Assembly: GCA_001818315.1 (NCBI GenBank)
Contig: MHKF01000012.1
Location: 23,976 to 87,975 of the forward strand
Length of the DNA stretch: 64,000 nucleotides
Reading direction: 5' to 3'
Source: Candidatus Kerfeldbacteria bacterium RIFCSPLOWO2_02_FULL_42_19
Lineage (GTDB): Bacteria > Patescibacteriota > Patescibacteriia > HO2-48-17
Part shown: in pieces, positions 4,947 through 39,663 of the stretch
How positions within the stretch are numbered: position 1 is the stretch's first letter
How the letters are laid out: each line of letters opens with the position of its first letter
Translations under genes and position numbers: made by a program
Notes under the pieces: generated by a model
Databases searched by the model: none
What the model saw: only the letters and a program-made list of their open reading frames with translations
What the model was told of the DNA's origin: nothing

Positions 4947-8303
<3,357 letters not shown>

Positions 8304-8309
8304 CTATTC

Positions 8310-11300
8310 TTGAGACTTATGTTGGAAAACATTACACTTCGTGTTCAAGATTTTAAAGCGATTCGTTTGAAACTCGCGTCACCTGACGAGATACTTGATT
8401 GGTCTCATGGCGAAGTAACTCGACCTGAGACAATTAATTATCGCACACAACGGCCAGAACGTGATGGATTGTTTTGTGAACGTATTTTTGGTCCATCGAA
8501 AGATTGGGAGTGTTATTGTGGAAAGTATAAGAGGATTCGTTATAAGGGTATTGTTTGTGATAAGTGTGGTGTGGAAGTTACGCGTTCTGTTGTGCGACGT
8601 GAGCGCATGGGTCATATTCAACTTGCGGCGCCTGTGTCGCATATTTGGTTTCTCCGCGGTGTCCCTTCAAAAATTGGTTTTATTCTTGATCTCTCTGTAC
8701 AAGCGCTCGAAAAAGTTATCTATTTCGCGAATTTTATTATCACAAATGTTGATGAGACGCTGAAGGAAAAAACCCTTGTCCAGATTTATGATGAAGCCAA
8801 GTCAAAGCGACACAGTATCCAAGGTGAATATCAACAAACAGTGCAAGATATTGAAAAACGCAAAAAAGCAGCTTTACATCAAGCAACTGGAACGCAGCGC
8901 AAGACTCTTACGGAGGAATTTGAACAGGAGCTTATCAACGCTGCCGTTATGCGAGATGAAAAATTGAAGGATTTGGACACGGCTGTAGATCTTGCGAAGA
9001 AAGAACTTAAAAATCTTGAGTCTCTGCAAATTTTATCTGAAAGTGAATATCAAGATCTTTCTTTAAAGTATGGTCATGTATTTGAGGCTAGTATTGGCGC
9101 TGAAGCCATCCGGAAACTTTTGGAACACATTGATTTAGATAAGCTTACTCACGAACTTGCAGAAGCAATAATTGAGAGCGCTAAAAATCAAAAGCGTCGT
9201 CTTGTGCGTCGTTTGAAGTTTGTGCGTAGTCTCAGATTGAATAATATTCGTCCGGATTGGATGATTTTGACGATGTTGCCTGTGATTCCTCCCGATCTTC
9301 GTCCTATGGTGCAACTTGATGGCGGTCGTTTTGCTGCTTCCGATTTGAATGATTTATATCGCCGTGTGATTAATAGGAATAATCGTCTGAAGAGACTTCA
9401 GGAACTTAACGCGCCGGAAGTGATCCAGCGTAATGAAAAGCGTATGCTTCAAGAAGCCGTTGATGCACTCATTGATAACAGCGCCCGTCATGGGAAAACC
9501 GTTACAGCCTCTACAGGTCAAAAGCGGCAATTAAAATCACTTGCGGATATGCTCAAAGGCAAACAAGGTCGTTTTCGCCAGAATCTCCTTGGGAAGCGCG
9601 TAGACTATTCTGGGCGTTCAGTCATTGTTGTTGGTCCTCATTTGAAGCTCCATCAGTGTGGACTGCCGAAGACCATGGCGTTGGAACTTTTTAAGCCTTT
9701 TGTGATGAGTGAATTAATCAAACGCGAAATTGTTTACAATGTTCGGAGCGCAAATCGTTTTATTGAATCTGGCGACGGTCGTATTTGGGACATACTGGAA
9801 GAGATTACGAAGAAATCCTATGTCCTCCTGAATCGTGCTCCGACACTCCATCGATTGGGTATTCAAGCTTTTCAACCGATACTTATTGAGGGTAAGGCTA
9901 TTCAGATCCATCCACTTGTTTGTACGGCTTTTAATGCAGATTTTGATGGTGATCAAATGGCAGTGCATATTCCGCTGACAGCAGAAGCTCAAAAGGAAGC
10001 CGCTCAAATTATGCTTTCGTCAAAGAATTTGTTGAAGCCGGCAACGGGTGATCCGGTTGTTTCCCCGAGCCAAGATTTAGTTCTTGGTGTGTATTACATG
10101 ACAACATTTGCGCAGAAAGAACGTGCACATGTTTTTGAGAGTCCCATAGAGGCGTTGAATATGTATGCCCTGGGGCATATCGGTATTCAAACCCGCATCC
10201 GAGTTCGTATAGATCAGAAAATTATTGAAGATGACACACAATCTGATCTGAAGAAAGGCATTGTCCTCACTTCAGTTGGGAGAATACTTTTCAATCAAGT
10301 TTTACCAGAGAGCATGCAGTTTATCAATAAAACGCTTGATAAGAAAGGACTCCGTCAGGTGATTGCGGAATGTTTGCGTCTGCACGGACGTGAACGTACA
10401 GTGGAACTTTTGGATGCTATTAAGATGGCGAGTCTGACCTACTTAACGAGTTCTGGTCTGAGTTGGGGTATGGACGATTTGATGATCCCAAAGGAAAAAA
10501 CAGATATTGTGAGCGCAGCTGAGAAAGAAGTTGATGAGTTGCAGTCGCAGTATGACGCTGGTCTTTTGACCGACGAGGAGCGACATGCTCGTATTGTTGC
10601 AGTATGGACTCGTGTAAAGAATGACATCACCGACCTCAGTCAGAAAACGCTCGATCCATATGGTTCTGTGTATGCTATGATTAATTCCGGATCACGAGGT
10701 TCTTGGGGCCAAACGACGCAGATGATGGGTATGAAGGGACTTGTTGTTAGTCCTTCAGGTAGTACTATCGAATTGCCTGTGAAGCGGAGTTTTAAAGAAG
10801 GTTTTGATGTATTGGAATATTTTATTTCGACACACGGCGCTCGGAAAGGTTTGACGGATATTGCTTTACGTACTGCGAATGCAGGGTATCTTACTCGGCG
10901 TTTGGTGGATGTGGCACAAGATGTTGTGGTTATACAAGAAGATTGCGGCGATCGCGTTGGAATTACATGGCGGAAAGAGGAAGTCGGTGAAATGGGTCCT
11001 GCACTGGAAGATCGCGTGATTGGGCGTGTACTTGCTAAACCCATTCTTCATCCGAAGACAAAAAAAGAAGTATTGAAGGCCGGTGAACTCGTAACTTCTG
11101 AGCATAGTAAAATATTGAAGAAATTAGGTTTGAAAGAGGTTACGTTTCGCTCTGTTTTAACCTGCAAGACGTTACGAGGAATTTGTCAGCAATGTTATGG
11201 TTACGATTTAGGCCACAATACCTTAGTTGCACTCGGTACCGCTGTGGGTATTATTGCTGCACAAAGTATTGGTGAACCGGGCACCCAGTTGACTATGAGA

Positions 11301-12218
11301 ACCTTCCATACCGGCGGTGTTGCTGGAGCGGATATCACACAAGGATTACCACGTGTGGAAGAACTTTTTGAAGCCCGACCTATTAAGAGTGCTGGTATAC
11401 TTTCTGAAGTCGATGGCGAGGTTTTGGAAGTGAAAGAAGAAGGAAAGCAAAAGACCCTTGTGCTGCGTTATTCAAAACCCACTAAACAAGTCGTAACTAT
11501 TGCAAAGGGTGATAAGGTAGAGGTTAAAGATGGCGATCAAGTCCGTGTTGGTGACATCTTACTCAAACACGTTTCCGAAAATATTCCTGCGCATGTTGAT
11601 GGGAATGTTAAAATTGAAAATCGCCAGATCATGGTCTTTGGTACTGAAGAGAAAGTTGTGGAATATGCTCTTCCGATTGGCTTTGGTGTGAAGGTTGGAG
11701 TTGGAGATCTTGTAACTCAGGGTATGCAGCTTTCTGAAGGGAGTCTTGATCTTCATCAGCTTTACTTACTCCGAAGCAAACTTGACACACAGAAATATAT
11801 TATTAAAGAGATCCAATACATTTATGCTTCTCAGGGACAAGATCTGAACGATAAGCATCTTGAGGCTATCGTGCGTCAGATGTTTTCGCGATATTACATT
11901 AAGGACGCACGTGATACCGATATGATTACCGGTGATATTGTTGCTTTGCATCAAATCATTCGCGCGAATCAGAAGGTTAAAACTTCAGGAGGAAAAGAAG
12001 CTCTTACCGAACCTCTGTTGCTGGGTATTACAAAGGTTTCGCTTTCAACAGATAGCTTCTTAGCCGCTGCTTCGTTTATTGAAACTGCTAAAGTTCTCAT
12101 CGACGCCGCAATTTCCGGTAAAGTTGATGATTTGTCCGGGTTGAAAGAAAACGTTATTATCGGGAAACTTATTCCTGTCGGCACTGGCTTTGTGCCTCCT
12201 GTGAGTCAGGAAAAATAA
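8310..12218 (+). CDS. rpoC: DNA-directed RNA polymerase subunit beta'
   Basis: 1302 aa with the NADFDGDQMAVH catalytic motif and a Zn-binding Cys cluster near the N-terminus. It starts 6 nt after rpoB. Confidence 0.98.
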   Translation: MRLMLENITLRVQDFKAIRLKLASPDEILDWSHGEVTRPETINYRTQRPERDGLFCERIFGPSKDWECYCGKYKRIRYKGIVCDKCGVEVTRSVVRRERMGHIQLAAPVSHIWFLRGVPSKIGFILDLSVQALEKVIYFANFIITNVDETLKEKTLVQIYDEAKSKRHSIQGEYQQTVQDIEKRKKAALHQATGTQRKTLTEEFEQELINAAVMRDEKLKDLDTAVDLAKKELKNLESLQILSESEYQDLSLKYGHVFEASIGAEAIRKLLEHIDLDKLTHELAEAIIESAKNQKRRLVRRLKFVRSLRLNNIRPDWMILTMLPVIPPDLRPMVQLDGGRFAASDLNDLYRRVINRNNRLKRLQELNAPEVIQRNEKRMLQEAVDALIDNSARHGKTVTASTGQKRQLKSLADMLKGKQGRFRQNLLGKRVDYSGRSVIVVGPHLKLHQCGLPKTMALELFKPFVMSELIKREIVYNVRSANRFIESGDGRIWDILEEITKKSYVLLNRAPTLHRLGIQAFQPILIEGKAIQIHPLVCTAFNADFDGDQMAVHIPLTAEAQKEAAQIMLSSKNLLKPATGDPVVSPSQDLVLGVYYMTTFAQKERAHVFESPIEALNMYALGHIGIQTRIRVRIDQKIIEDDTQSDLKKGIVLTSVGRILFNQVLPESMQFINKTLDKKGLRQVIAECLRLHGRERTVELLDAIKMASLTYLTSSGLSWGMDDLMIPKEKTDIVSAAEKEVDELQSQYDAGLLTDEERHARIVAVWTRVKNDITDLSQKTLDPYGSVYAMINSGSRGSWGQTTQMMGMKGLVVSPSGSTIELPVKRSFKEGFDVLEYFISTHGARKGLTDIALRTANAGYLTRRLVDVAQDVVVIQEDCGDRVGITWRKEEVGEMGPALEDRVIGRVLAKPILHPKTKKEVLKAGELVTSEHSKILKKLGLKEVTFRSVLTCKTLRGICQQCYGYDLGHNTLVALGTAVGIIAAQSIGEPGTQLTMRTFHTGGVAGADITQGLPRVEELFEARPIKSAGILSEVDGEVLEVKEEGKQKTLVLRYSKPTKQVVTIAKGDKVEVKDGDQVRVGDILLKHVSENIPAHVDGNVKIENRQIMVFGTEEKVVEYALPIGFGVKVGVGDLVTQGMQLSEGSLDLHQLYLLRSKLDTQKYIIKEIQYIYASQGQDLNDKHLEAIVRQMFSRYYIKDARDTDMITGDIVALHQIIRANQKVKTSGGKEALTEPLLLGITKVSLSTDSFLAAASFIETAKVLIDAAISGKVDDLSGLKENVIIGKLIPVGTGFVPPVSQEK

Positions 12219-12243: not shown

Positions 12244-12723
12244 ATGCGCAATTTTACAAAAATTTTCGTTCCATCGATTCTTGTGAGTACCTTTGTTTTT
12301 GCTGGATGCAATCAGCAAACTACAGAGACAAACGCAGATGTCACTGTCGACGCCACATCCTCAACTTCTGTCGCTAACTCTTCTGCTGATAGCACTTCTA
12401 CGCTCAATTCGGATAGTGCTCGCGAGACGAAGAACACTTCGCAAGGCACCATGAAAGAATTTAAGGTTGTTGCCAAGCGTTTTGTTTTTGAACCGGCAAC
12501 ACTGCGAGTCAAAAAAGGAGATACGGTGCGATTGCAGATTACGAGTATGGATACCGATCACGGTTTTGCCATCGCTGAGTTTGGAGTGAATGCAACAATT
12601 CCTGCTGGTAAAACTGTGACCGTAGAGTTTGTTGCCGATAGGCAGGGCACGTTTACGACACAATGTTCGGTATTTTGTGGCACTGGACACCCTGATATGC
12701 AAGGTACATTGATCGTCGAATAA
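12244..12723 (+). CDS. CuA-type cupredoxin lipoprotein (cytochrome c oxidase subunit II-like domain)
   Basis: Lipobox FAGC. The motif H-x34-C-x3-C-G-x2-H-x2-M (DHGF...QCSVFCGTGHPDM) reproduces the CuA binuclear-site ligand spacing exactly. The stop TAA abuts the ATG of the next gene. Confidence 0.7.
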   Translation: MRNFTKIFVPSILVSTFVFAGCNQQTTETNADVTVDATSSTSVANSSADSTSTLNSDSARETKNTSQGTMKEFKVVAKRFVFEPATLRVKKGDTVRLQITSMDTDHGFAIAEFGVNATIPAGKTVTVEFVADRQGTFTTQCSVFCGTGHPDMQGTLIVE

Positions 12724-14427
12724 ATGGATCTCTTTATTGAGATAAGTCTCATTATAGTTCTTGCGGCGTTTATTGCTGGACTTGCGCATCTTCTGAAGCA
12801 GCCGCTTATTATTGGTTATATTTTAACCGGCCTTCTTGTTGGTCCGAAAGTATTGAATCTGCTCCGCGCTTCCGATGTGATTCATATTTTTTCACAGATT
12901 GGCATCGCTCTGCTTTTATTTATTGTTGGGCTTGGTCTGCGACCGAAAAATATTCGCCGACTCGGTAATGTTGCCGTGATTACTGGTGTCGGGCAAGTGC
13001 TCTTTACTTCACTGATCGGCTTTGCAATTGTACGCTTATTTGGTTTTAATGCTACGACGTCATTGTATATTGCGATTGCTTTGACATTCAGTAGTACGAT
13101 TATTATTTTGAAGTTGCTTTCAGATAAGCGGCATCTCGGTACGCTCTACGGTCAAATTTCTATTGGCTTTCTTTTGGTTCAAGATATTATTGCGACCTTG
13201 ATTCTGATTTTTGTTTCGTCGTTTTCTGAAGGCCAACGTTTTATGGAAGTAGCGTTGCTCCTTTTATTGAAGGGAGTTCTCCTTGGCAGTGTTTTATATT
13301 TTTGCACTCGGTATGTACTACCTCCTCTTTCTTTCTTTTTTGCGCGCAAGCAAGAATTTTTATTTTTGTTTTCCATTGCCTGGGGTCTTGGACTTGCAAG
13401 TCTTTTTCATCTCTTAGGATTTTCTATCGAGATCGGCGCGCTTGTTGCTGGCGTCGCTCTTTCTACTACGCCGTATCATCTGAATATTAGTTTTAAGATG
13501 CGTCCGGTTCGTGATTTTTTTGTCATACTCTTTTTTATTCTGCTTGGCTCGGAACTTGTTTTTGAGAGTCTGCTTGATATGCTTCTACCGGCTTTTATTC
13601 TTTCTGTTTTTGTCTTGATCGGAAATCCGCTGATTGTGATGACCCTCCTCGGTTTACTGGGTTATAGTAAACGTACGGGTTTTATGGCGGGCTTAACGGT
13701 TGCTCAGATTAGTGAATTCTCTTTGATTCTGATGGCTTTAGGGAGTGATCTGGGTCATATTTCTCAAGATGCTGTAGCGCTCGTGACGGTTGTAGGGCTT
13801 GTCACTATCGCTGGTTCAACGTATTTGATACTCTATGCTGAAAAAATATATCCGTATCTCGCACCCTATCTTTCTCTTTTTGAAAAAAAACATAGAAAAG
13901 CCGAACAACATGTTGCGCAGTATGATATGTTTCTGTTTGGTTATAATCGAGTCGGGTATGATTTTGTTCAAGTTTTTCGAGATTTAAAGAAAAAGTTTCT
14001 TGTTGTTGATTTTGATCCTGAAGCTGTACAGAGACTGTCTCACTCGAATATTCCTGTGAAATACGGTGATGTCGGTGATAGTGAATTTCTCGCAGAACTT
14101 GATTTGGAGCATGCTATATTAGTTGTTTCTACGATACCGGATTTCGAGACAAATGCCTTTCTTGTACAGCGCATTCGGAGTGTAAACTCGCGTGCGATTG
14201 TCATTGTGATTTCCCATAATATTTCTTGCGCGCAGCAATTATATGACTTCGGCGCTTCCTATGTGATGATGCCTCATTTTTTGGGTGCGCAGTATGCGGC
14301 AATGATGATTGAACGCTATGGTTTTGATGTACAGCGATTTCACAAAGAACGCACTGAACACCGTAGTTATCTTCGTCAAAGGCAGGTTTTGGGCCACGAA
14401 CATCCCGTCGCTGAAAGTCTCCGTTAG
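12724..14427 (+). CDS. Kef-type (CPA2) cation:proton antiporter with a C-terminal RCK/TrkA-N domain
   Basis: N-terminal multi-TM domain (LIIGYILTGLLVGP...) followed by a Rossmann-like segment FLFGYNRVGYDFV and a regulatory domain. Confidence 0.75.
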   Translation: MDLFIEISLIIVLAAFIAGLAHLLKQPLIIGYILTGLLVGPKVLNLLRASDVIHIFSQIGIALLLFIVGLGLRPKNIRRLGNVAVITGVGQVLFTSLIGFAIVRLFGFNATTSLYIAIALTFSSTIIILKLLSDKRHLGTLYGQISIGFLLVQDIIATLILIFVSSFSEGQRFMEVALLLLLKGVLLGSVLYFCTRYVLPPLSFFFARKQEFLFLFSIAWGLGLASLFHLLGFSIEIGALVAGVALSTTPYHLNISFKMRPVRDFFVILFFILLGSELVFESLLDMLLPAFILSVFVLIGNPLIVMTLLGLLGYSKRTGFMAGLTVAQISEFSLILMALGSDLGHISQDAVALVTVVGLVTIAGSTYLILYAEKIYPYLAPYLSLFEKKHRKAEQHVAQYDMFLFGYNRVGYDFVQVFRDLKKKFLVVDFDPEAVQRLSHSNIPVKYGDVGDSEFLAELDLEHAILVVSTIPDFETNAFLVQRIRSVNSRAIVIVISHNISCAQQLYDFGASYVMMPHFLGAQYAAMMIERYGFDVQRFHKERTEHRSYLRQRQVLGHEHPVAESLR

Positions 14428-14452
14428 TGCTATACTGGGATTATCGCCATAG

Positions 14453-16726
14453 GTGTTTTCGTCACGAAATTTTCAATTATTTCTGAGTATTTTCATGCCT
14501 CGTAGTCCCAAGAAAATTGCCAAGCGCGAAACTTCAGTTCTCGATACACTTTCCCCAAAACTTCACCCGCAAGCACAACGCGGAATTCTTGTCATTCTCC
14601 TTTTTGCATTTGGCGCCCTGGCGTTTTTAAGTTTTTTACATGTCGCTGGCCGTGTTGGTGAATGGTTCGCATGGGCACTGATGCTTTTTTTTGGTTGGGG
14701 GAGATTTTTGGTACCTGTTATTGTTTTTGCTCTCGGGTATGTACTTTTGTTTGCGCGTAAATACCAATGGCGATTTGTGGAATATGGCGGTTTTGTACTG
14801 TTGTTGTTGAGTATTTTTGGCATGCTTCATTTTCTTGTACCGGCTGACGCAATGGTTGATAGTATTCCAGTTGGTCAGGGAGGCGGTTACGTTGGTTTCG
14901 CTGTTGCTTGGGTTGTGTATTCACTGTTCGGAGTGTACGCAGGTTGGGTAGTATTTGCTACATTGTTTTTGATTGCTATTCTTTTAGTTTTTAATAACAC
15001 GGCCATTCTTTGGTTGAATCGCATTGGCGGTTTCGCAGGTTTTCTTTCGCGTCTTAAAGATTGGTTTCGTAAAACTGAAGTACATCAAGAGGAATTAGCG
15101 TCTCCTCAGGAAGCTAGCACTGATACCTCTATTATGTCTGCATCGGTAAATCGCGCAAAACCAGAAGACGATCGTGAACCTTCACAGCTTGTATCGCGCG
15201 AGGACGTTGGAACTCAGGAGCATATTCCATTTTCTATTCGACATCCCAGACGGATTGAGATACCGCTTTCGTTGTTGCAAGATAAAGCCGGAAAAGCAAC
15301 GGCGCGAGATATTGTTGTGAATCGGGATCGTATTCAGACGACGTTGAAGAATTTTGGTATTGAAGTAACGATGCATGATGTACACGTTGGGCCAACAGTT
15401 ACGCAGTATGAATTGAAACCCGCTGATGGTGTGAAATTATCCCAAATTCTTACTTTAAAGCGCGATTTGGCATTGGCTTTAGCAGCTCATCCTATTCGCA
15501 TTGAAGCGCCGATCCCTGGGAAAGCACTCGTGGGTATTGAAGTGCCAAATCAATCTGTGGCACTCGTGCGTTTGAAGGAATTGTTGCAGGCACAGGAATT
15601 TAAAAAACGTCGTTCACATTTGACGTTGGCTATCGGCAAGGACGTGGCTGGAACAGTGTTTCTTGCCGAACTTGGAAAAATGCCCCATATGCTTATCGCC
15701 GGGGCGACAGGTTCAGGGAAATCCGTTGCTATTAATAGTCTCATTCTGGGTTTGTTGTTTCAGAATAGCCCTACATCACTGCGATTGATATTGATTGATC
15801 CAAAACGGGTGGAACTCACGGTTTATAATGATATTCCGTATCTTCTGACTCCAGTTATTACGGACTATGAGAAAACAGTGAATGCCTTGAAGTGGGCCGT
15901 GGGGGAGATGGATCGACGCTATGAACTTCTTTCACAAGCTCAGAAACGTCATCTTGATAACTACAACGCGACTGCTCTTGAGAAATTACCGTACATCGTT
16001 ATTGTCATTGATGAATTAGCTGATCTTATGGCAACCTCGGCTCGAGAAATTGAAGCTATTGTTGTGCGTCTGGCACAAATGGCGCGGGCGGTTGGTATCC
16101 ATTTGATTCTTTCTACGCAGCGACCTTCAGTAGACGTGATTACCGGACTCATTAAAGCAAATATTACGACACGTCTTGCTTTTGCAGTCGCTTCGATTAT
16201 TGATTCACGTACTATTCTGGATTTTCAAGGCGCTGAGTCTCTTTTAGGGAACGGAGATATGTTGTATATTTCTGCTGAGCTCTCAAAACCGAAACGACTT
16301 CAGGGTACTTTTGTGGATGATGCTGAGATTAATAATGTAGTAGCCTTTTTACGCAAGCAGCAGGAGCCGAATTATAATTCGGATATTGTGACGCGGCAAT
16401 CGCGTGTTATGGTCCCCGGAGCTTTTCAGGATGCAGAGGACGAAGATGAGTTGTTGGATGCAGCGAAACGTGTCATTATAGAGTCAGGAAAAGCGTCGGC
16501 GTCACTTTTACAGAGGAGGCTCCGTGTGGGGTATGCGCGCGCTGCTCGTATTCTGGATATTCTCGAAGAACAAGGCATTATTGGGCCCGCAGATGGAGCA
16601 AAGCCTCGTGAAATTCTGATTACTTCCGAAGAAGGATTTGACACTGCGCCGGCTTTAACGGAAGAAAGCGAAATGACAGAGACGGAAGACGATGCGCCGC
16701 CGTCACTCCGTCGCAAATCTTTCTAA
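14453..16726 (+). CDS. ftsK: DNA translocase FtsK/SpoIIIE
   Basis: N-terminal TM region, Walker A LIAGATGSGKSVAINS, an RLAQMARAVGIHLILSTQRPS motor motif, and a C-terminal gamma winged-helix (LLQRRLRVGYARAARILDILEEQGIIGP). Confidence 0.92.
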   Translation: MFSSRNFQLFLSIFMPRSPKKIAKRETSVLDTLSPKLHPQAQRGILVILLFAFGALAFLSFLHVAGRVGEWFAWALMLFFGWGRFLVPVIVFALGYVLLFARKYQWRFVEYGGFVLLLLSIFGMLHFLVPADAMVDSIPVGQGGGYVGFAVAWVVYSLFGVYAGWVVFATLFLIAILLVFNNTAILWLNRIGGFAGFLSRLKDWFRKTEVHQEELASPQEASTDTSIMSASVNRAKPEDDREPSQLVSREDVGTQEHIPFSIRHPRRIEIPLSLLQDKAGKATARDIVVNRDRIQTTLKNFGIEVTMHDVHVGPTVTQYELKPADGVKLSQILTLKRDLALALAAHPIRIEAPIPGKALVGIEVPNQSVALVRLKELLQAQEFKKRRSHLTLAIGKDVAGTVFLAELGKMPHMLIAGATGSGKSVAINSLILGLLFQNSPTSLRLILIDPKRVELTVYNDIPYLLTPVITDYEKTVNALKWAVGEMDRRYELLSQAQKRHLDNYNATALEKLPYIVIVIDELADLMATSAREIEAIVVRLAQMARAVGIHLILSTQRPSVDVITGLIKANITTRLAFAVASIIDSRTILDFQGAESLLGNGDMLYISAELSKPKRLQGTFVDDAEINNVVAFLRKQQEPNYNSDIVTRQSRVMVPGAFQDAEDEDELLDAAKRVIIESGKASASLLQRRLRVGYARAARILDILEEQGIIGPADGAKPREILITSEEGFDTAPALTEESEMTETEDDAPPSLRRKSF

Positions 16727-17406
16727 TGTATATGTCGCCATTTACTTCCCGTAGGATTACGTATCAGACGCTTGGAGAACAGTTGCGAGCTTTGCGCACT
16801 TCTGAAGGTCTGTCGGTGTCTGATGTTTCCGCAGCTATTCGGGTTCGGCAGGAATATATCGCAGCGCTCGAAGCTGGACATTACACTGTATTGCCGAGCG
16901 GTATTTATATTCGCAATTTTCTTAAAGAGTACGCCACATTTTTAGGCGTCAGTTGGAAACGGGTTATTACTCTTTATGAAAAAGAAATGCGTGCATTCGC
17001 GCAGCACATCGAAAAGGGGAAGTATTTTGCAAAACAAGGGCCTTCGTTGCGCGCCGTTGTTGTTCCCAAATTGCTACGTATCGGACTTCTTTCTACGCTT
17101 ATGTTTGTGGTGTTCCTGTACATCGGTTTTTCTGTGTATACGACTTTCGCGCCGCCTCGTTTGATTGTTTCTGAGCCATTTGATAATCTCATAGTGCAGG
17201 ATCACGTCTTGCATGTTATCGGAAGCACTGATTCAGCATCGCAGGTTATGATTAATGGGCAGTCTGTGCCAGTGCAAGCAAGCGGGGGTTTTGAACAGAG
17301 AGTATCTTTGCATGATGGGCTGAATACTATTGTTATTACGGCGCAAAATAAACATAGTCGGACTCGGACCGTGTCTCGGCAAGTGGTTGTAGAACCTTCG
17401 TCTTAA
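16726..17406 (+). CDS. rodZ: RodZ-like cytoskeleton protein (HTH_25 + TM + DUF4115-like)
   Basis: N-terminal XRE-type HTH (LGEQLRALRTSEGLSVSDVS...YIRNFLKEYATFLGV), one TM helix, and a C-terminal periplasmic domain. The ATG overlaps the ftsK stop (TAATG). Confidence 0.6.
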   Translation: MYMSPFTSRRITYQTLGEQLRALRTSEGLSVSDVSAAIRVRQEYIAALEAGHYTVLPSGIYIRNFLKEYATFLGVSWKRVITLYEKEMRAFAQHIEKGKYFAKQGPSLRAVVVPKLLRIGLLSTLMFVVFLYIGFSVYTTFAPPRLIVSEPFDNLIVQDHVLHVIGSTDSASQVMINGQSVPVQASGGFEQRVSLHDGLNTIVITAQNKHSRTRTVSRQVVVEPSS

Positions 17407-17424
17407 TTTCATTTATGTTTTTTT

Positions 17425-18513
17425 ATGTCTCAAACAAAGCTTCTTTCGCAATCTGATACGTCCGTTAAAAATTCGCAGCGTGGTGCTGTCAAAATCAATA
17501 TAGGGGAGAGTCGTTTGCGTGCGGCACAACAGGCTGTTGATCAAATAAGAGAACGTTTCGGTGATGGTTCTATTATGCGTCTTGGAGAAGCGAAGTCACT
17601 GCAAGTTGACGTAGTTCCGACCGGTTGTATTTCACTTGATCTTGCGTTGGGCGTCGGTGGATTTCCGCGCGGTCGAGTTATTGAGATTTTTGGACCCGAA
17701 GCTTCCGGCAAGACAACACTTGCGCAGCATGCGGTTGCTGCAGTGCAAAAGCGCGGCGGTGTGGCAGCTTATGTTGATGCTGAACATGCGCTGGATCCTG
17801 AATACGCTAAACACATTGGCATCAATATTAATGACATGTATATTTCTCAGCCAGATACTGGAGAACAGGCATTGGAAATTGTAGAGACCCTTGTGCGTTC
17901 CAATGGTGTTGATGTGATTGTTGTCGATTCAGTTGCTGCTCTTACTCCGCGTGCAGAGATTGAGGGAGAAATGGGGGATAGTCACATGGGTTTACAGGCG
18001 CGGCTTATGAGTCAGGCACTTCGCAAATTGACCGGGATCATTAGTAAGTCGCACACGATAGTAATTTTTATCAATCAGACACGTATGAAACTAGGAGTGT
18101 TTTTTGGTAATCCCGAGACAACGACCGGAGGTATGGCATTGAAGTTTTATTCCTCGGTCCGTATTGAGGTGCGTCGCGCCGCTCAGATTAAGCAAGGTGA
18201 GAAAATTATCGGCAATCGTATTAAGGCGAAGATTGTGAAGAATAAAGTCGCTGCGCCATTTCGTAGTACTGAATTTGATATTATGTATAATCAAGGTATT
18301 TCTTTAGCGGGTGACTTGTTGGATACCGGTGTGCAATTCGGCGTGATTACGAAGAGCGGTAATTCGTTTGCTTATAAAAATGCGAAACTTGGTATCGGTC
18401 GAGAAAACGCGAAAAAGACAATTGAGACGGATCGAAAACTTTCGAATGAACTACGACAGGAAATTATTGCCAAAGCGAAAGAATCCGCAGAATCGCAAGA
18501 GGCGCAAAAGTAA
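17425..18513 (+). CDS. recA: recombinase RecA
   Basis: Walker [12 protein letters not shown] and the conserved L1/L2 regions; 362 aa. Confidence 0.97.
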
Positions 18514-18520
18514 ATCGAAC

Positions 18521-18685
18521 AGCGGAGTAAGGGGTAATATATATTTTTTCAAATGCTGTGATATCCAAGCATGAATGTTTTGTATTTTTGAAAAAGTTTT
18601 TTGAGTGCACACTCTTCTCGCTCTCTGATGAAAGTTACTTATCACAACGCATTTGAAGAAAACATATATTACCCCTTACTCCGCT
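18521..18685. repeat. 165-bp near-perfect palindromic element immediately downstream of recA
   Basis: Left arm AGCGGAGTAAGGGGTAATATATATTTT (18521-18547) pairs with right arm AAAACATATATTACCCCTTACTCCGCT (18659-18685) with one mismatch. The arms extend inward (TTCAAATGC/GCATTTGAA and TGTGATA/TATCACA) to ~44 bp around a ~75-nt central loop. Confidence 0.8.
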
Positions 18686-19016
18686 TTCATGTACATTAAA
18701 AATTTTTCGATAACTGAAGAAGCCGCATTCCCCTTTGTATGGAATTCGGCTTCTTAATGTGTGCGATGTGATGCTATAGTGTTTTATGCAGATCGCGGAT
18801 TTGTTTTCCGTATTCGTTGACAAGCACGACCCTCTCCTTTCTTCGGTTTTTCCATCGTATTCTCTACTTTGAAAGTAGATGCGTTAGCATTTTAACAATC
18901 TTTCTGTTTTTGTCAAACACAAAACTCCTTTCACACTTCTATCGCTTGAATGTTCGTATATTTTCAAGCGGCACAGGAATGCAAGGAGTACATTTTGTTT
19001 TATTCTCCCGCCGTAT

Positions 19017-19334
19017 TTATATGTTGAGTTTTTTTGCGAGGTCACTCACGAGTGGAATTTCCCAGTACTTTCCAGATATTGCTTGCGCAAATCCTACAAT
19101 AATCACTACAAAGATGACGAGATTGAGAAGCCATCCTAGAAATGGAATAAACCAACAAATGACTGACGCGATAAAGAGTATGATGCCTTGTTTTGCGTGA
19201 AACTGTGCGAACGGGCTATCCTTTTTTAGGATGAGTATCACGATACTGATAAACCATAAATAACTCAGTGCTGCAAGTACTTTGTTTTCTTCAATATCTT
19301 TAGTGTCGCTTGTATTGATTTTTTTTTCTGCCAT
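19017..19334 (-). CDS. DUF4870-family small membrane protein
   Basis: ALSYLWFISIVILIL...HAKQGIILFIASVI pattern. I trimmed the start to the ATG at 19334, which has a perfect SD AGGAGGTGA 7 nt upstream, so there is no overlap with the upstream gene. Confidence 0.6.
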   Translation of the reverse strand: MAEKKINTSDTKDIEENKVLAALSYLWFISIVILILKKDSPFAQFHAKQGIILFIASVICWFIPFLGWLLNLVIFVVIIVGFAQAISGKYWEIPLVSDLAKKLNI

Positions 19335-19348
19335 AGTATCACCTCCTT

Positions 19349-19795
19349 TCAGATTTTGAGTGATGTCTGTGATGTATGATGCTTTGTGTTGCGTTGAAAG
19401 TATCCGATCAATAGGATCGTCATTTGAGTGATGAGGAAACTGAGCAATACCCACAGTGCGGATTGTGTGATGATAGCGAACGCGCTCCAGATGGTTTTGT
19501 TTTGGATTATTTCTACAATAGCAATACTCGTACCGCTTGCGACGCCGCTCACGAGGTTGCTCATAATCATATGTTCTTTTGCGCGATATTGATGTTGATA
19601 CAGCTGAGAGCTGATGAAGATTATGAGGACGATATTCGCTAGTATTATGAGATGGAGGGTGTATGTTTCTAAGTATGCCGCAATATTAAAAATCAAGAGT
19701 ACGAGTGTCGGTTTACTCACCAGCATGAAGATTTTCTGCATATTCTCTTGTGTAATATTGTGTTTTGTTTGGTTTTTTTGTTCTGCTATTTCCAT
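19349..19795 (-). CDS. hypothetical polytopic membrane protein
   Basis: 148 aa with 4 predicted TM segments. It is on the same strand as 19017..19334 and 14 nt upstream of it, so probably co-transcribed. Confidence 0.5.
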   Translation of the reverse strand: MEIAEQKNQTKHNITQENMQKIFMLVSKPTLVLLIFNIAAYLETYTLHLIILANIVLIIFISSQLYQHQYRAKEHMIMSNLVSGVASGTSIAIVEIIQNKTIWSAFAIITQSALWVLLSFLITQMTILLIGYFQRNTKHHTSQTSLKI

Positions 19796-19941
19796 ATTTT
19801 TCTTCTTGTAGCATATCTCAAACCGGCTTTCGAGGCAAAATTTTGGTGTACGTGTGATACGAGTTTTTCTACGATCCCGAGTATTTCTCTCTCTTTTTGT
19901 ATCCTATGACGCAATGTGAGTTGCTGACGATTGTGCCGCGG

Positions 19942-20700
19942 TTATTTTTTTTGACCGCTTTTGGTATATTCCGCAATTACTGTTTTCATTGCCGCCACTT
20001 CGGCTTGTATGGTGCGGTTTAAGGAAAAAGCTGAGGCTACGGAATAAACGTACGGCATTTCGAGGCAGAAGGAGTATGGGATGCCTTCATGATGCATTCG
20101 CTCTTCGAATGACCCGTCTGGTTTTGGTTGTACAATGAGACCATTATGTGCTTGCATTGAAAAAATACGAGATTTTTTACAAATGGGGATGTATCGATTT
20201 ATGCTCGTCAGTATTTTTCGTGGGAGCAGTATTGGTTGTTCATTGCGAATATATGCGTGCAGGTAAGCGCATGTGTTTACATCATCTCCATGGAGTGCCA
20301 TGAAGCAGTGGACATTTTCTTTCTTCATAGTATTGTAAAGCGCTCTGTTTTCTTTTTTGAATGTGTGATTGCGAAAATGTCTATTGAGATTGATGTTTTG
20401 AAAATTACGTTCCCTGCAAGCATGAAATCCTGTAGGATTGGCTACTGGAAACAGTATAATTTTTGGTACGTTTTGTTTTTTAAAGTTGATGCTTTTGAGT
20501 AATTTTAACATCGCGAATGACCCAGATATTTCGTCGCCATGAATTCCTGCTGAAAAACATACAGTTTTGTGAGCGTTGCCTGGAATAGTGACTTTGAAGA
20601 GGGGGTATTCATTCCTTTTACCAACAAAACTAATAACCTCGAGACGAAAATGTCTCTGTGCACAAATGGATGTAAGTTTTTGGATGTAGGAGAAATACAT
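19942..20700 (-). CDS. M14-like zinc hydrolase (succinylglutamate desuccinylase/aspartoacylase family)
   Basis: GIHGDEISG and ALHGDD motifs typical of AstE/AspA and MpaA-type enzymes. Confidence 0.5.
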   Translation of the reverse strand: MYFSYIQKLTSICAQRHFRLEVISFVGKRNEYPLFKVTIPGNAHKTVCFSAGIHGDEISGSFAMLKLLKSINFKKQNVPKIILFPVANPTGFHACRERNFQNINLNRHFRNHTFKKENRALYNTMKKENVHCFMALHGDDVNTCAYLHAYIRNEQPILLPRKILTSINRYIPICKKSRIFSMQAHNGLIVQPKPDGSFEERMHHEGIPYSFCLEMPYVYSVASAFSLNRTIQAEVAAMKTVIAEYTKSGQKK

Positions 20701-20877
20701 AAAATACCTTCAGGTTCAGGCGTTTCTTGATCACAGATATTTTGGCTTATATCGGCCATATTTTTATGATTATACCTCATTTTGCAACGCGCACTTATGT
20801 CTTATCCTTGTTGTTATGTTCTGATACTATAATTTTAAGATAACCAAAATTTATTTTTGTGTAAAGTTTTACTTTTA

Positions 20878-36852: not shown

Positions 36853-39663
36853 ATGATTGACAGTCAAGATTTTGTGTTTGCGATGTTTTTATGCTGTAAT
36901 TATTCTATGTTTTGTTTTCAATCTTTACATTATTTCGCAAATTATCTGAAGCGTGCATTTTATAGTATTTTGCGAATATTACGATGTCGCACTCTTTATG
37001 TTTTCGCAATCGTGATCTTCATCACCGTTATTGTCGACTCGACGCCTCTTCTCGCTGCGGAAAATTTTGAAGCACCGGATTTTCAGGTCACACTGAGGGT
37101 TGCTGTAGCGCCCCAAGATATTGCTCCTCAAGCACAAGGAAGTTCGCTTCAGCAACTTGTGCGACAGGTTTTGAGGTTTTTCGCTCCTTTCGATCGCGTT
37201 GCACAAGCAACTTCATCTGTGGACGCGAAAACATTCGTTTCAACCGAACCTGTATGGATGCAATTACTTCGTGCTGTGTCACGCCCCGAACCCACACTCA
37301 TTTTTGTTTTTCTTTTTCTCGCATCCCTTTGCTATGCGCTATATGTGACGCGTGGGACAAAACATTTTTTTACTTTATTTTACAAGCCTCGCGCGCATCT
37401 CTTTCATCATCTCGCAAGGCGGAATTCGACCGGAACGTACCTTCACTCGTATGCGCGTTTTCATCTCCATGCTTTCCTTTCGAAGCACTTTGCGCTCGTC
37501 AGCGGTTTTCTCTTATTCGCGAAAGTTACTGTTGTCGCTGGCCTTGCAACTTTACTGTTGGATTTTCCGTTGCTTTCACGCGCTACTGAGCGTGATGTGC
37601 CTGTGTTTCCGGGGGCAATGCTTACATATCACATCGAATATGATAATCAAAGCGATACATCTCTTTCGCGAGTTCAATTTTCTCACGTATTTCCTCCTGG
37701 CACCGCGTATGTTCCCGGAACGTTTCTTTGGAATAACATCTCTCTCACTGATGTAGCTGATGAAGACGGATTTACGATAACCGACGGTGGATTTACTTTA
37801 CAATCGAATCAACTGCCAGTCGGCACAGGATCGTTTTCGTGGAACCTACGAGTCGCTCATCCTGCTCAAACGAACGCTATCGCAAGTAAAGTTGGATATC
37901 AAATAGATGACGGATTGTTGCAACAAACGAATACTTTCGTGAATCCGGTTGTTACTTTGACGATTTCAGGCAAGGCTTTTTATGATGTGAATCGCAATAA
38001 TGTTTTTGACGCAACGACTGAAACCGGCATCGCCGATGTTCACTTCGCTTTGTATGAAGATACGAATCAGAGCGACGTGTTTGACGGAACTGATACACTG
38101 CTTGCGGAAATGAATACTGCGGAACAAGGCCTCTATCATTTTTCGGGTTTGCGTCCAGGACTTTTTTTTGTAAAAGTTGTGGATGCTCGTGAGGGTCCTT
38201 ATGAACTTCTCGGTGGCTTTCAGGAGGTGCGATTGCAGGCGCTGGAGAGTGTCTCGAGTCAAGACGTCGCTTATATTTTACCTGATGTTGCGCAGAAATC
38301 GACGGTAATGTTCGGTACGCTTTGGCATGATATCGATCGTAATCAACAACATGATGATGGCGAGACGAATTTTAGTGATATAGAGTTACGTTTGTATCGC
38401 GATGCAGCGCACAAGGGTGTTTTGGAAACTCTGAATGATACACTTGTTGCAAGTACGTTCACGGATGAGGACGGTCGATTTCGATTTTTAATTCCAGAAG
38501 AAGGTGATTATTTTGTCCTGGTGTTGATGGAACGATTGCCGCAGGGGTATACATTGACGACCGCTAACCAACCGAAGCGTATTGCTGTGGACGTGGATAC
38601 ATCGGAAACGAATGTCGATAGTTTTGGATATGCATTGCCAACGAGCAGCATCGGTGACGAAGTTTTTGAGGATAGCAATAATAATACCTTGCATGATGCC
38701 ACTGAAGCTGGATTTTCTGATGTGCAAGTGCTGTTGTATCGTGACGATGGCTCGGAGCAATTCGAAGAAGCTTTGGATAATCGTATTGCTGAAACTTTTA
38801 CCGATTCCCAAGGGAAATATCTCTTTTCTCATGTAGCTTCGGGAGGGTACTTTGTAATGATTGACACTGCGACACTTCCGGACGAATCCGGATATCGTTT
38901 GACGACAGCTTCCAATCCTCGCTTTGTTGAAATTGTGATCGATACAGATCAAATGAACCTTCTTTCCGATTTTGGGTTTCGTTCGGAAACAGTAGGGAAT
39001 GATATTCCCTCTTCGTCTGGGTCTCAGTCCAATATCGGCACCGGAGCGACTCCACAATCCGCATCATCACGCATGACTACTCAGTCTGCTCAGGTTCCAA
39101 CGGAGACTATTCCTCAAACGAAACTGAATGTTGTACAGAAACCTGTGTCAGATACTCCGCAAGAGCCTGCAGTTACCACGCTTGATGTTGATTCCGATAC
39201 TGACGCTACATTATCTCCACAGAGTGTGGCGCAATCTGAGCAATCTGCTGGCGATAGTGTTCCAACTGTAACGCCGCAGCCAGTTACCACCGAATCTGAT
39301 TCTTCTGGGGAGGGTTTACAAATACAAAATGATACGGGTTATAAGAGTCGTCCTGTTACTTTACGTCCGTGGGCCACAGAAGATGCTTCGCAGGCTGCAT
39401 TCGAGAATCTCCAAAGACAACTTATGCAGTATGCGGTACGTTTGACTCCGTATGCGGCTTCCGTTTCCTGGTTGGAAACTCCGACGCAACGTTTTTCTGT
39501 GTTTCCTCATACACTCTTGCCTATTATCTTTTTTGTTATTGTTCTTTCATATTGTCTTATGTTGCTTCATGCGTCGGAACGTTCAAAATTTTCACACCGC
39601 TCATCCGTTGTTTATAGTCGCAAAAAGCCTCGTCGCAAAACGTATGCGCGCGTTAGTGAATAA
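36853..39663 (+). CDS. large secreted surface protein with four or more SdrD/Cna-B-type repeats, a Ser/Thr/Pro/Gln-rich stalk and a C-terminal TM anchor
   Basis: Repeated D-x-N-x-N-G-x-x-D...G...V-x-V-x-L...G-x-Y-x-F modules (e.g. FYDVNRNNVFDATTETGIADVHFALY...GLYHFSGLRPGLFFVKV). The start codon is uncertain, and the end overlaps the uvrC start by 20 nt. Confidence 0.6.
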   Translation: MIDSQDFVFAMFLCCNYSMFCFQSLHYFANYLKRAFYSILRILRCRTLYVFAIVIFITVIVDSTPLLAAENFEAPDFQVTLRVAVAPQDIAPQAQGSSLQQLVRQVLRFFAPFDRVAQATSSVDAKTFVSTEPVWMQLLRAVSRPEPTLIFVFLFLASLCYALYVTRGTKHFFTLFYKPRAHLFHHLARRNSTGTYLHSYARFHLHAFLSKHFALVSGFLLFAKVTVVAGLATLLLDFPLLSRATERDVPVFPGAMLTYHIEYDNQSDTSLSRVQFSHVFPPGTAYVPGTFLWNNISLTDVADEDGFTITDGGFTLQSNQLPVGTGSFSWNLRVAHPAQTNAIASKVGYQIDDGLLQQTNTFVNPVVTLTISGKAFYDVNRNNVFDATTETGIADVHFALYEDTNQSDVFDGTDTLLAEMNTAEQGLYHFSGLRPGLFFVKVVDAREGPYELLGGFQEVRLQALESVSSQDVAYILPDVAQKSTVMFGTLWHDIDRNQQHDDGETNFSDIELRLYRDAAHKGVLETLNDTLVASTFTDEDGRFRFLIPEEGDYFVLVLMERLPQGYTLTTANQPKRIAVDVDTSETNVDSFGYALPTSSIGDEVFEDSNNNTLHDATEAGFSDVQVLLYRDDGSEQFEEALDNRIAETFTDSQGKYLFSHVASGGYFVMIDTATLPDESGYRLTTASNPRFVEIVIDTDQMNLLSDFGFRSETVGNDIPSSSGSQSNIGTGATPQSASSRMTTQSAQVPTETIPQTKLNVVQKPVSDTPQEPAVTTLDVDSDTDATLSPQSVAQSEQSAGDSVPTVTPQPVTTESDSSGEGLQIQNDTGYKSRPVTLRPWATEDASQAAFENLQRQLMQYAVRLTPYAASVSWLETPTQRFSVFPHTLLPIIFFVIVLSYCLMLLHASERSKFSHRSSVVYSRKKPRRKTYARVSE

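Follow-up and report, generated by a model that had tools for sequence, protein, structure and literature searches.

A stand-alone CuA-type cupredoxin, a predicted lipoprotein, encoded beside a CPA2 antiporter gene in a Kerfeldbacteria genome, and its place in an orphan-CuA family

To our knowledge, textbooks assign CuA centres to only two enzymes, cytochrome oxidase and nitrous oxide (N2O) reductase. What, then, does a gene for such a centre do in a genome segment in which neither enzyme is found? We address this question for a 64,000-nt stretch of Candidatus Kerfeldbacteria bacterium RIFCSPLOWO2_02_FULL_42_19 (assembly GCA_001818315.1, contig MHKF01000012.1, positions 23,976 to 87,975 of the forward strand), which is referred to in its entire length as the window. 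In the window, a small cupredoxin gene (referred to as cup) lies directly upstream of a Kef-type antiporter gene (kef). An initial annotation of this DNA described the product of cup as an isolated CuA-type lipoprotein translationally coupled to the antiporter, and suggested that it might be a redox sensor, a copper-handling protein, or a remnant of lost respiration. Our analysis confirms what was observed and supports part of the interpretation. The protein is a solitary CuA-type cupredoxin, and we propose, with a probability of roughly 0.6, that it acts as a one-electron relay in extracytoplasmic copper, thiol-disulfide, and oxidative-stress homeostasis; the electron transfer, its partners, and its purpose are what we infer.

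A solitary CuA-type cupredoxin, a predicted lipoprotein

The cup gene and the parts of its product are as follows.
12244-12723 (+): gene of the stand-alone CuA cupredoxin, a putative lipoprotein of 159 aa (open reading frame (ORF), translation, Pfam, PDB and fold matches)
12244-12309 (+): signal peptide with lipobox, MRNFTKIFVPSILVSTFVFAG followed by C22 (read directly from the sequence)
12310-12447 (+): disordered tether of 46 residues (23-68), rich in Ser, Thr, Asn, and Asp (composition, model confidence)
12448-12720 (+): CuA cupredoxin domain, residues 69-159 (structure model, Foldseek, homologue identity)
12559-12561 (+): His106 codon (CAC), first CuA ligand (translation, alignment)
12664-12699 (+): CuA ligand loop C141-S-V-F-C145-G-T-G-H149-P-D-M152 (codons read from the sequence)

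The translation contains the ligand spacing H106-x34-C141-x3-C145-G-x2-H149-x2-M152, encoded at 12559-61, 12664-66, 12676-78, 12688-90, and 12697-99, and all ligands of the exact CuA spacing claimed in the initial annotation are therefore present. Among solved structures, Thermus ba3 oxidase provides the best match with its CuA domain (2CUA; E=3e-12), in a gapless alignment over 85 residues at 31% identity with every ligand in register, in which His106 pairs with the Thermus CuA His and the ligand loop aligns with CNQYCGLGHQNM of Thermus ba3. Pfam places the protein in Cupredoxin_1 (PF13473; E=1.1e-12, above the gathering score) and in COX2 (E=2.6e-10; 40.7 bits against a cut-off of 22). An AlphaFold2 (AF2) model built with 45 homologues is a nine-strand beta-sandwich with a predicted local distance difference test (pLDDT) score of ~98 at residues 70-158; its top Foldseek match is again 2CUA, with a root-mean-square deviation of 1.0 A over 90 columns, and the CuA domains of NosZ follow at 1.4 A. 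In a 45-sequence alignment of the family, H106 and C141 are invariant, C145, H149, and M152 are at least 90% conserved, and the consensus of the ligand loop reads CSVFCGxGHxxMxGTLxV.

Among the NCBIfam models, those of clade III L-NosZ (69.6 bits), Sec-NosZ (67.8 bits), CoxB (TIGR02866; 49.9 bits), and nitrosocyanin (48.5 bits) match the copper domain only and score far below their full-length cut-offs, which are 147.7 for CoxB and 625-700 for NosZ; the NosZ models match solely through their last ~100-147 positions. In its fold, ligand set, export signals, and family membership, the protein is a genuine solitary CuA-type cupredoxin and a predicted lipoprotein, and its site is probably occupied by copper as a binuclear CuA centre.

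The N-terminus consists of an n-region with R2 and K6 and a hydrophobic segment (residues 4-22) that ends in the lipobox F-A-G-C22. As this segment is the only hydrophobic one in the protein, the two transmembrane helices of COX2 are absent. These N-terminal features, the lipobox (VFAG-C) included, are kept in the 60%-identical orthologue of a close relative (locus L089), and a lipobox-like motif occurs in 46 of 120 non-redundant family representatives; neither lgt nor lsp was found in the window. Of the residues in the tether that follows, 70% are S, T, N, D, or Q, and pLDDT in the AF2 model is ~60 over residues 1-68. The tether is the segment that diverges most from the orthologue and it varies in length across the family, while the cupredoxin domain is 77% identical in the orthologue and 53-62% identical in homologues from DPANN archaea and bacteria of the Candidate Phyla Radiation (CPR). 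Judged from these features, the cupredoxin is probably exported, lipid-anchored at Cys22, and carried on the flexible 46-residue tether at the outer face of the membrane.

The identical protein is present on 15-21 metagenome contigs, and our look-up returned no NCBI protein record for the ORF. The GC content of cup (45%, against 43.5% for the window) gives no signal of foreign origin, and recent horizontal acquisition by base composition was rejected. A 142-aa antisense ORF at 12361-12789 was set aside as a mechanical, unsupported ORF.

A family of orphan CuA proteins and its gene neighbourhoods

A word-indexed search recovered 62 small cupredoxin homologues, most of them 110-260 aa long and with the same pair of Pfam domains, often preceded by a lipobox-like N-terminus and a variable linker. 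A profile search over 1.84 billion cluster representatives (50%-identity clusters) yielded 1,074 representatives at E<=1e-30 (6,555 with the threshold relaxed to E<=1e-10), most of which are 140-210 aa long, and recovered the close orthologue (P0002) at E~5e-51 together with hundreds of similar small proteins. The median length in the family is 153 aa, with 104 of 120 members no longer than 220 aa. A scan of one genome per species with a 17-sequence alignment gave 262 relatives, the best 80 of which were analysed. Most of these best 80 belong to DPANN archaea (Woese-, Aenigm-, Micr-, and Nanoarchaeota, with AR10 and AR15 as complete genomes) or to CPR bacteria (Kerfeld-, Magasanik-, Roizman-, Morani-, Peregrini-, and Dojkabacteria), followed by Acidobacteriota and Spirochaetes, and true NosZ proteins (650-690 aa) are the weakest matches.

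In a neighbour-joining tree of the 90-aa domain, which carries no support values, CPR and DPANN sequences are interleaved, and the window protein and its orthologue stand apart from three other Kerfeldbacteria copies. The initial annotation had asked whether the domain is of the COX2 or the NosZ type. In the tree, the CuA domains of NosZ fall outside the group of small CPR/DPANN proteins; the nearest structure is a ba3 COX2, and the top family models are those of NosZ.

A short, CuA-only "nosZ-like" protein has been reported in 21 of 33 DPANN genomes from oxygen-deficient zones (Zhang et al., 2024, mBio; PMC10936187). It is predicted to lie outside the membrane, branches between Cox2 and clade II NosZ, occurs in genomes without other respiratory genes, and did not complement a Pseudomonas nosZ mutant (PMC10936187). 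CPR bacteria in general mostly lack respiratory complexes (PMC12577380). The literature on Kerfeldbacteria and on CPR oxygen adaptation held nothing specific to this cupredoxin. The window protein is a bacterial member of this large known orphan-CuA family, whose function is unsolved. It is unusual, as first described, when set against textbook CuA proteins, but not when set against a family already described in DPANN. Since the ligand set and the domain are strongly conserved over more than 1,000 CPR/DPANN clusters, they point to a selected function rather than to decay, and the suggested remnant of lost respiration is not supported. A large and conserved orphan-CuA family in non-respiring organisms means that CuA has a third job, probably an important one for the surface oxygen, copper, or disulfide chemistry of ultra-small symbionts. 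It also means that labels such as "cytochrome c oxidase subunit II" or "nosZ" for such genes in metagenomes overstate respiratory or denitrifying potential.

Some relatives carry several CuA domains. P0077 has three (two with an axial Gln) and P0078 has two, while in P0211 two CuA domains precede a cytochrome-d1-type beta-propeller. P0080 (1,166 aa, nine cupredoxin repeats) was considered as a "poly-CuA wire" and rejected, as its repeats carry the type-1 motif C-x-F-H-x-M.

We then compared gene neighbourhoods at the cupredoxin loci (80 genome loci and a few look-up loci, 88 in all, and a further 80 metagenome loci), which were de-replicated at 90% domain identity to 120 non-redundant loci. 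Genes were called simply as longest ORFs in flanks of +/-10 kb per homologue, many contigs being short. A thiol-redox, superoxide dismutase (SOD), copper, or NapH-like gene is present within 1.5 kb of the cupredoxin gene at 36 of the 120 loci, and within the examined flanks at 47. Within 1.5 kb, an Fe/Mn SOD was found at eight loci, always directly downstream on the same strand at 22-273 nt, and DsbD/CcdA-type membrane proteins and DoxX at seven each. Thioredoxin-like lipoproteins, Cu P-type ATPases, type-1 cupredoxins, and Lgt each occur at four loci, a NapH/MauN-like ferredoxin membrane protein at five (all in non-CPR bacteria), and a CueO-like multicopper oxidase at two; within 10 kb, the Cu-ATPase count rises to ~11 and that of the multicopper oxidase to four. 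All-against-all clustering of 1,346 ORFs revealed no dominant conserved neighbour, such as an unknown membrane partner. Most of the recurrent clusters are housekeeping genes (EF-P, TrmD, AsnRS-like, and HhH-GPD glycosylase) and represent lineage synteny.

More informative than adjacency are gene fusions of the CuA domain. It is fused to a CPHC-thioredoxin in L048 and to three thioredoxin-like domains, followed by a DsbD gene, in L019, and a triad of thioredoxin, cupredoxin, and DoxX genes is present in L013 and L100. In the Spirochaetaceae (L058, L059, L061, L063, L067, and L069), 590-650-aa fusions (e.g., L058:9794-11668) consist of a membrane anchor, a CuA-like cupredoxin, a two-domain multicopper oxidase, and SCO1/SenC, with a CuA-like loop, CSVYCGSGHFxQ, in which an axial Gln replaces Met. 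Other members display CuA on SLH repeats, on a DUF5777 outer-membrane barrel, or on DUF7282, and some contain the domain two or three times. Whatever its anchor or fusion partner, the CuA domain is without exception placed at the cell surface, outside the cytoplasm. The established CuA maturation factors, which act in Cys reduction and copper insertion, are thioredoxin-like reductases and Sco (PMC6669012), and their association with the family is therefore good evidence that the site is metallated as CuA.

At L013:7681-9124, L100:283-1768, L048:6561-7436, and L138 (DPANN), CuA is flanked by or fused to a CPHC (DsbA-like) thioredoxin-fold lipoprotein, followed by DoxX, and this DPANN layout resembles a MauD/MauE-like pair around a cupredoxin. 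In three soil metagenome loci (L137:4298-5719, L160:1628-3094, and L169:4203-5264), an N-terminal CuA domain is joined to a DUF5777 membrane beta-barrel, followed in L137 by a 487-aa plastocyanin-type protein; this combination of cupredoxin and porin recalls fused cytochrome-porins. The cupredoxin match adjoins a NapH/MauN-like 4Fe-4S membrane protein of ~480-515 aa at four loci (L054:873-2357, L060:415-1902, L086:1110-2552, and L080:10288-11835) from Spirochaetes, Methylomirabilota, Acidobacteriota, and Symbiobacteriaceae. In L054, L060, and L086, the gene of the membrane protein comes immediately after that of a small CuA cupredoxin, which suggests a quinol-linked donor in these non-CPR lineages.

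For the relay proposed above, the lipid-tethered and surface-exposed CuA domain would carry single electrons, with copper bound as a cofactor. In relatives, DsbD/CcdA, DoxX, and thioredoxin-like proteins would probably keep the CuA Cys residues reduced or exchange electrons with the site, a P-type Cu-ATPase would probably supply the copper, and electrons would probably go to or come from oxidants, for example via CueO-like multicopper oxidases. Of the three roles first suggested, redox or copper handling fits these comparative data best.

A number of observations weigh against such a relay. None of the listed neighbours is present at 73 of the 120 loci, and no single partner is conserved. The neighbour counts are not phylogenetically independent, and most of the cup-SOD pairs that can be placed on the tree (L014, L026, and L040) belong to one Microgenomates/Roizmanbacteria clade. 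The thiol-redox and Cu-ATPase neighbours may reflect assembly of the site rather than its function. The window itself, scanned over its 64 kb, has no SOD, thioredoxin, DsbD, DoxX, Cu-ATPase, or multicopper oxidase gene, and the gene-content searches for this genome cover these 64 kb of a 320-kb contig. A phmmer search with E. coli CyoB found no CyoB/COX1 homologue in the window or at the 120 small-cupredoxin loci, although a very divergent subunit I may escape it. Further, the order cup-kef-ftsK is kept in the relative L089 (identity 60% for the cupredoxin, 79% for Kef, and 83% for FtsK) despite a different upstream context, which leaves a small chance that the coupling to the antiporter is real.

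Part of the same evidence could also be explained by a copper-handling protein, in which a Cys2His2Met site with one or two Cu would buffer, reduce, or hand over the copper exported by a Cu-ATPase, comparable to CupA and CopI/CusF-type proteins. The Cu P-type ATPases near the family carry HMBD and are directly adjacent to the cupredoxin gene in L043, L062, and L068, and genes for CueO/CopA-type multicopper oxidases adjoin it in L079 and L046 and are found in its vicinity in L124 and L144. Locus L028, from another Kerfeldbacteria genome, encodes in order a Cu-ATPase, CorA, HtrA, a type-1 cupredoxin, HU, and the CuA cupredoxin, with an SOD ~4.6 kb further. CupA provides an example of a chaperone built on a cupredoxin fold with a binuclear Cys/Met site (PMC5646241). 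However, the family keeps the full CuA set, with both His and the axial Met or Gln, as expected of a rigid electron-transfer centre and not of a labile transfer site. The density of Cu-ATPase genes near cup is only ~1.8 times that in distal flanks, and a copper-resistance gene is absent from most loci and from the window. Cu-ATPase adjacency is explained equally well by copper supply for cofactor insertion, a role of the CopA2 type (PMC8475189). We consider pure copper handling possible but rather unlikely.

A bolder version of the relay would make CuA the missing one-electron wire of a non-respiratory extracytoplasmic chain that connects thiol-disulfide exchange with oxygen or reactive oxygen species in CPR and DPANN, groups largely devoid of cytochromes and respiratory complexes. 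On the thiol side would be the DsbA-like CPHC thioredoxin lipoproteins, the DoxX/MauE-type membrane proteins, and DsbD/CcdA; on the oxygen side would be multicopper oxidases, co-regulated with SOD. If true, these symbionts could fold proteins oxidatively and/or defend themselves against oxygen with no need of a respiratory chain, or could even exchange electrons with the surface of the host. In this specific form we regard the idea as tentative and, on balance, unlikely.

The antiporter gene and the rest of the locus

The remaining features of the locus are as follows.
4947-8303 (+): rpoB, and 8310-12218 (+): rpoC (identical genes in L001 match Pfam RNA_pol_Rpb2_1-7 and Rpb1_1-5)
12721-12726 (+): cup/kef junction, TAA followed directly by ATG, 0-nt spacer (read from the sequence)
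12724-14427 (+): CPA2-family cation:proton antiporter with C-terminal RCK/KTN (TrkA_N) domain, 567 aa (Pfam; OGY79089.1)
14453 or 14495 to 16726 (+): ftsK (Pfam, NCBIfam)
16726-17406 (+): HTH_25 RodZ-like gene (Pfam, NCBIfam)
17425-18513 (+): recA (Pfam, NCBIfam)

The initial annotation placed the stop codon of cup directly against the start codon of kef, and this is exact: the junction reads GAA TAA ATG GAT between genes at 12244-12723 and 12724-14427. The antiporter is a CPA2 member with matches to Na_H_Exchanger (E=1e-55) and TrkA_N (E=1.5e-19) in Pfam. Its partial NCBIfam matches, one of them to a CPA2 model, score below the equivalog cut-offs (158.7 and 136.2 against 752 and 804 for KefC and KefB; 136.3 against 700 for YbaL), by which measure it is not a KefC, KefB, or YbaL equivalog. 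The NCBI records of the Kef, RpoB, and RecA proteins are assigned to Candidatus Kerfeldbacteria. The same-strand run rpoB-rpoC-cup-kef-ftsK-rodZ-recA is likewise as first described, with its domains confirmed and with gaps of 6, 25, 0, 25, -1, and 18 nt, where ftsK and rodZ overlap by 1 nt and the kef-ftsK gap widens to 67 nt when the ATG at 14495, chosen by gene callers, is taken as the start of ftsK. Between rpoC and recA we found no terminator-like signal and no promoter-like signal above background, and the claimed co-expression with the antiporter holds to the extent that cup and kef are probably co-transcribed with the rpoBC...recA genes. An RNA element or terminator isolating cup-kef was rejected on the same grounds, and no Rfam family reaches its gathering score anywhere in the window.

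We tested conservation of the cup-kef pairing from both the cupredoxin side, with tblastn and phmmer over 160 loci, and the Kef side. Searched with tblastn, the window Kef was recovered at the 88 loci only in its own lineage, together with one weak and distant DPANN exchanger, and no Kef was found beside the cupredoxin at the 80 additional metagenome loci. At three of the 120 loci a Kef-like gene is within 1.5 kb of cup, and two of these three are the window locus and that of its close relative. About 118 other non-redundant loci lack the pairing, among them those of three other Kerfeldbacteria genomes (L028, L030, and L037) that carry the cupredoxin elsewhere. From the other side, three Kef orthologue loci (from a Woesearchaeota, another archaeon, and a Falkowbacteria) contain no cupredoxin. 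In L089 the cup-kef spacer is 7 nt, so the exact abutment of stop and start codons is not conserved, and cup is not preceded by rpoC. The 233 nt before cup in that contig (L089:1-233) have stops in all three forward frames, are not the end of rpoC, and have no Rfam match at the gathering threshold. In the window, 13 of 31 same-strand gene pairs have gaps of 30 nt or less, six touch or overlap, and the coding density is 91%; short gaps are thus usual in this genome and the tight spacing is not evidence of coupling. Outside the immediate lineage, we rejected Kef coupling as a conserved module. The pairing is confined to this lineage of Kerfeldbacteria and a single relative (79% identity in Kef) and does not sustain the weight first placed on it.

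A partnership with the antiporter, in which the exported domain would sense external redox state or copper and modulate K+/H+ exchange in the manner of KefF/KefG, would account for the abutting codons and for the gene order retained in L089 with a different upstream gene. It has a precedent in kefF-kefC, where a small oxidoreductase gene lies 5' of kef and overlaps it by a few bases (PMC10224563), and in the DPANN locus L010 a distant Na/H exchanger gene is 0.8 kb downstream of cup. Against it are the missing pairing at the other cup loci and at the Kef orthologue loci, the variable spacer (0 vs. 7 nt), and the usual tight packing of unrelated genes here, such as ftsK and rodZ. Moreover, KefF binds the cytosolic KTN domain, while the window protein has no flavodoxin fold and would be exported to the opposite side of the membrane. 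We regard this partnership as very unlikely; functional coupling of cup and kef in general is unlikely, and their adjacency is most likely incidental, a gene order specific to this lineage with its compact genome. Although not new, the orphan-CuA puzzle is real and can be tested; the window locus gives no unique mechanistic clue to it.

After the 79% relative, the next-best Kef homologues (57-61% over full length) belong to DPANN (Woese-, Nano-, and Pacearchaeota) and Falkowbacteria. The cupredoxin also has DPANN among its closest homologues, at ~60% identity. These affiliations hint at gene sharing between CPR and DPANN for both cup and kef, although none of the DPANN loci seen has the two genes side by side.

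The scanned ORFs of the window encode housekeeping and surface proteins of CPR type. A 320-kb scaffold from the Rifle aquifer carries the identical locus, which also occurs in several other samples. Just past recA, on the opposite strand, is a gene for a small membrane protein of the MamF_MmsF family (19017-19334 (-); Pfam, identical gene in L001). Large predicted surface proteins at 4-840, 36853-39663, and 49770-54305 contain FG-GAP, SdrD_B/SpaA, and CarboxypepD_reg repeats, a type expected for surface or adhesion proteins of episymbiotic bacteria. A 936-aa surface-protein ORF overlaps the longest-ORF start of uvrC by ~210 nt, and one of the two starts is probably miscalled. One metagenome contig (L172; ENA ERZ28563660, scaffold_4616) matches window positions 12507-20723 at 99.99%, and its first 973 nt are unrelated. 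In its chimeric ORF P0004, the last 77 cupredoxin residues follow in frame on an N-terminus that resembles the beta-CASP part of RNase J. The breakpoint inside cup (window 12507) represents either a misassembly or a strain rearrangement.

Respiratory enzymes and other known systems

The initial annotation noted no oxidase, heme, or other respiratory gene nearby, and among the ORFs scanned in the window we likewise found no respiratory, heme, or copper gene. A homologue of the NosZ propeller was found neither in the window nor at the small-cupredoxin loci. Candidates for COX1 or NosZ among the neighbours were rejected: those of ~490 aa (L054, L060, L080, and L086) are the NapH/MauN-like ferredoxin membrane proteins, and those of 517-546 aa are CueO-like multicopper oxidases. 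The cupredoxin is very probably not a heme-copper oxidase subunit II, and it is not a nitrous oxide reductase. The Glu that has a role in the A-type CSELCG loop is a Val in the window protein. That the protein nevertheless belongs to an enzyme encoded at another place in the genome, as the displaced subunit II of a heme-copper oxidase or as the module through which electrons enter an N2O or nitrite reductase, would agree with the COX2, ba3, and NosZ C-terminal matches and with the NirK or cytochrome o oxidase encoded by some CPR (PMC5581439; PMC12577380), but it is highly improbable in view of the missing COX2 helices and the altered loop, a disordered 46-residue tether incompatible with a fixed CuA-to-heme distance, CoxB and NosZ scores far under the cut-offs (49.9 vs. 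147.7; 69.6 vs. 700), the lack of a COX1 or NosZ propeller gene beside any of the 120 small members, the absence of other respiratory genes from DPANN carriers and the failed complementation of Pseudomonas nosZ (PMC10936187), and the general scarcity of respiratory complexes in CPR (PMC12577380).

Compared with known systems, the domain is closest in structure to subunit II of Thermus thermophilus ba3 oxidase (2CUA, 1EHK), with which it shares the fold and the same six ligand positions. Instead of a transmembrane helix and a subunit I, the window protein has a lipid anchor and a long disordered tether, and its ligand loop is CSVFCGTGHPDM compared with CNQYCGLGHQNM in Thermus. The C-terminal CuA domains of clade II and III NosZ give the highest family-model scores, restricted to that C-terminal domain, and the loop start "CS.FC" is common to both, but the window protein lacks the catalytic beta-propeller that carries the CuZ site.

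The KefF-KefC and KefG-KefB pairs of E. coli (PMC10224563) are similar in that the gene of a small redox protein is located 5' of, and touches, a CPA2/KTN antiporter gene. Unlike an exported cupredoxin, KefF is a quinone reductase with a flavodoxin fold that resides in the cytosol and binds KTN. CupA of Streptococcus pneumoniae (4F2E; PMC5646241) is also a membrane-tethered cupredoxin with a binuclear Cys/Met copper site and a genetic link to a Cu-ATPase; the study refers to copper within the bacterial cell. It differs in having no His ligands and works with the cytoplasmic face of CopA. CupA faces the cytoplasm, and it was not among the sequence or fold matches listed for the cupredoxin. Nitrosocyanin (1IBY), a red copper protein and another small stand-alone PF13473 cupredoxin, is 33-42% identical over the aligned regions (48.5 bits); it has a mononuclear site, with neither the second Cys nor the C-x3-C-x3-H-x2-M loop, whereas the window protein keeps the full set.

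The nearest counterpart is the DPANN "NosZ-like" protein (PMC10936187), which, compared by its description, is likewise short, CuA-only (C-x3-C-x3-H), and predicted to be outside the membrane. The closest genome matches of the window protein are themselves from DPANN (Woesearchaeota and others; 53-60% domain identity). Their NosZ-HMM (hidden Markov model) scores also fall in a similar range (20-58 bits for the DPANN proteins and 68-70 here). The two differ in their hosts, which are marine archaea of oxygen-deficient zones in that study and a groundwater CPR bacterium (Kerfeldbacteria) here. Reduction of N2O was proposed for the DPANN protein, with a negative complementation result (PMC10936187), whereas the neighbourhoods compared here point to thiol, copper, and oxidative-stress chemistry. 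This comparison shifts the hypothesis for the orphan CuA proteins from N2O reduction, respiration, and Kef regulation to thiol-redox proteins, SOD, Cu-ATPase, multicopper oxidase, and Sco.

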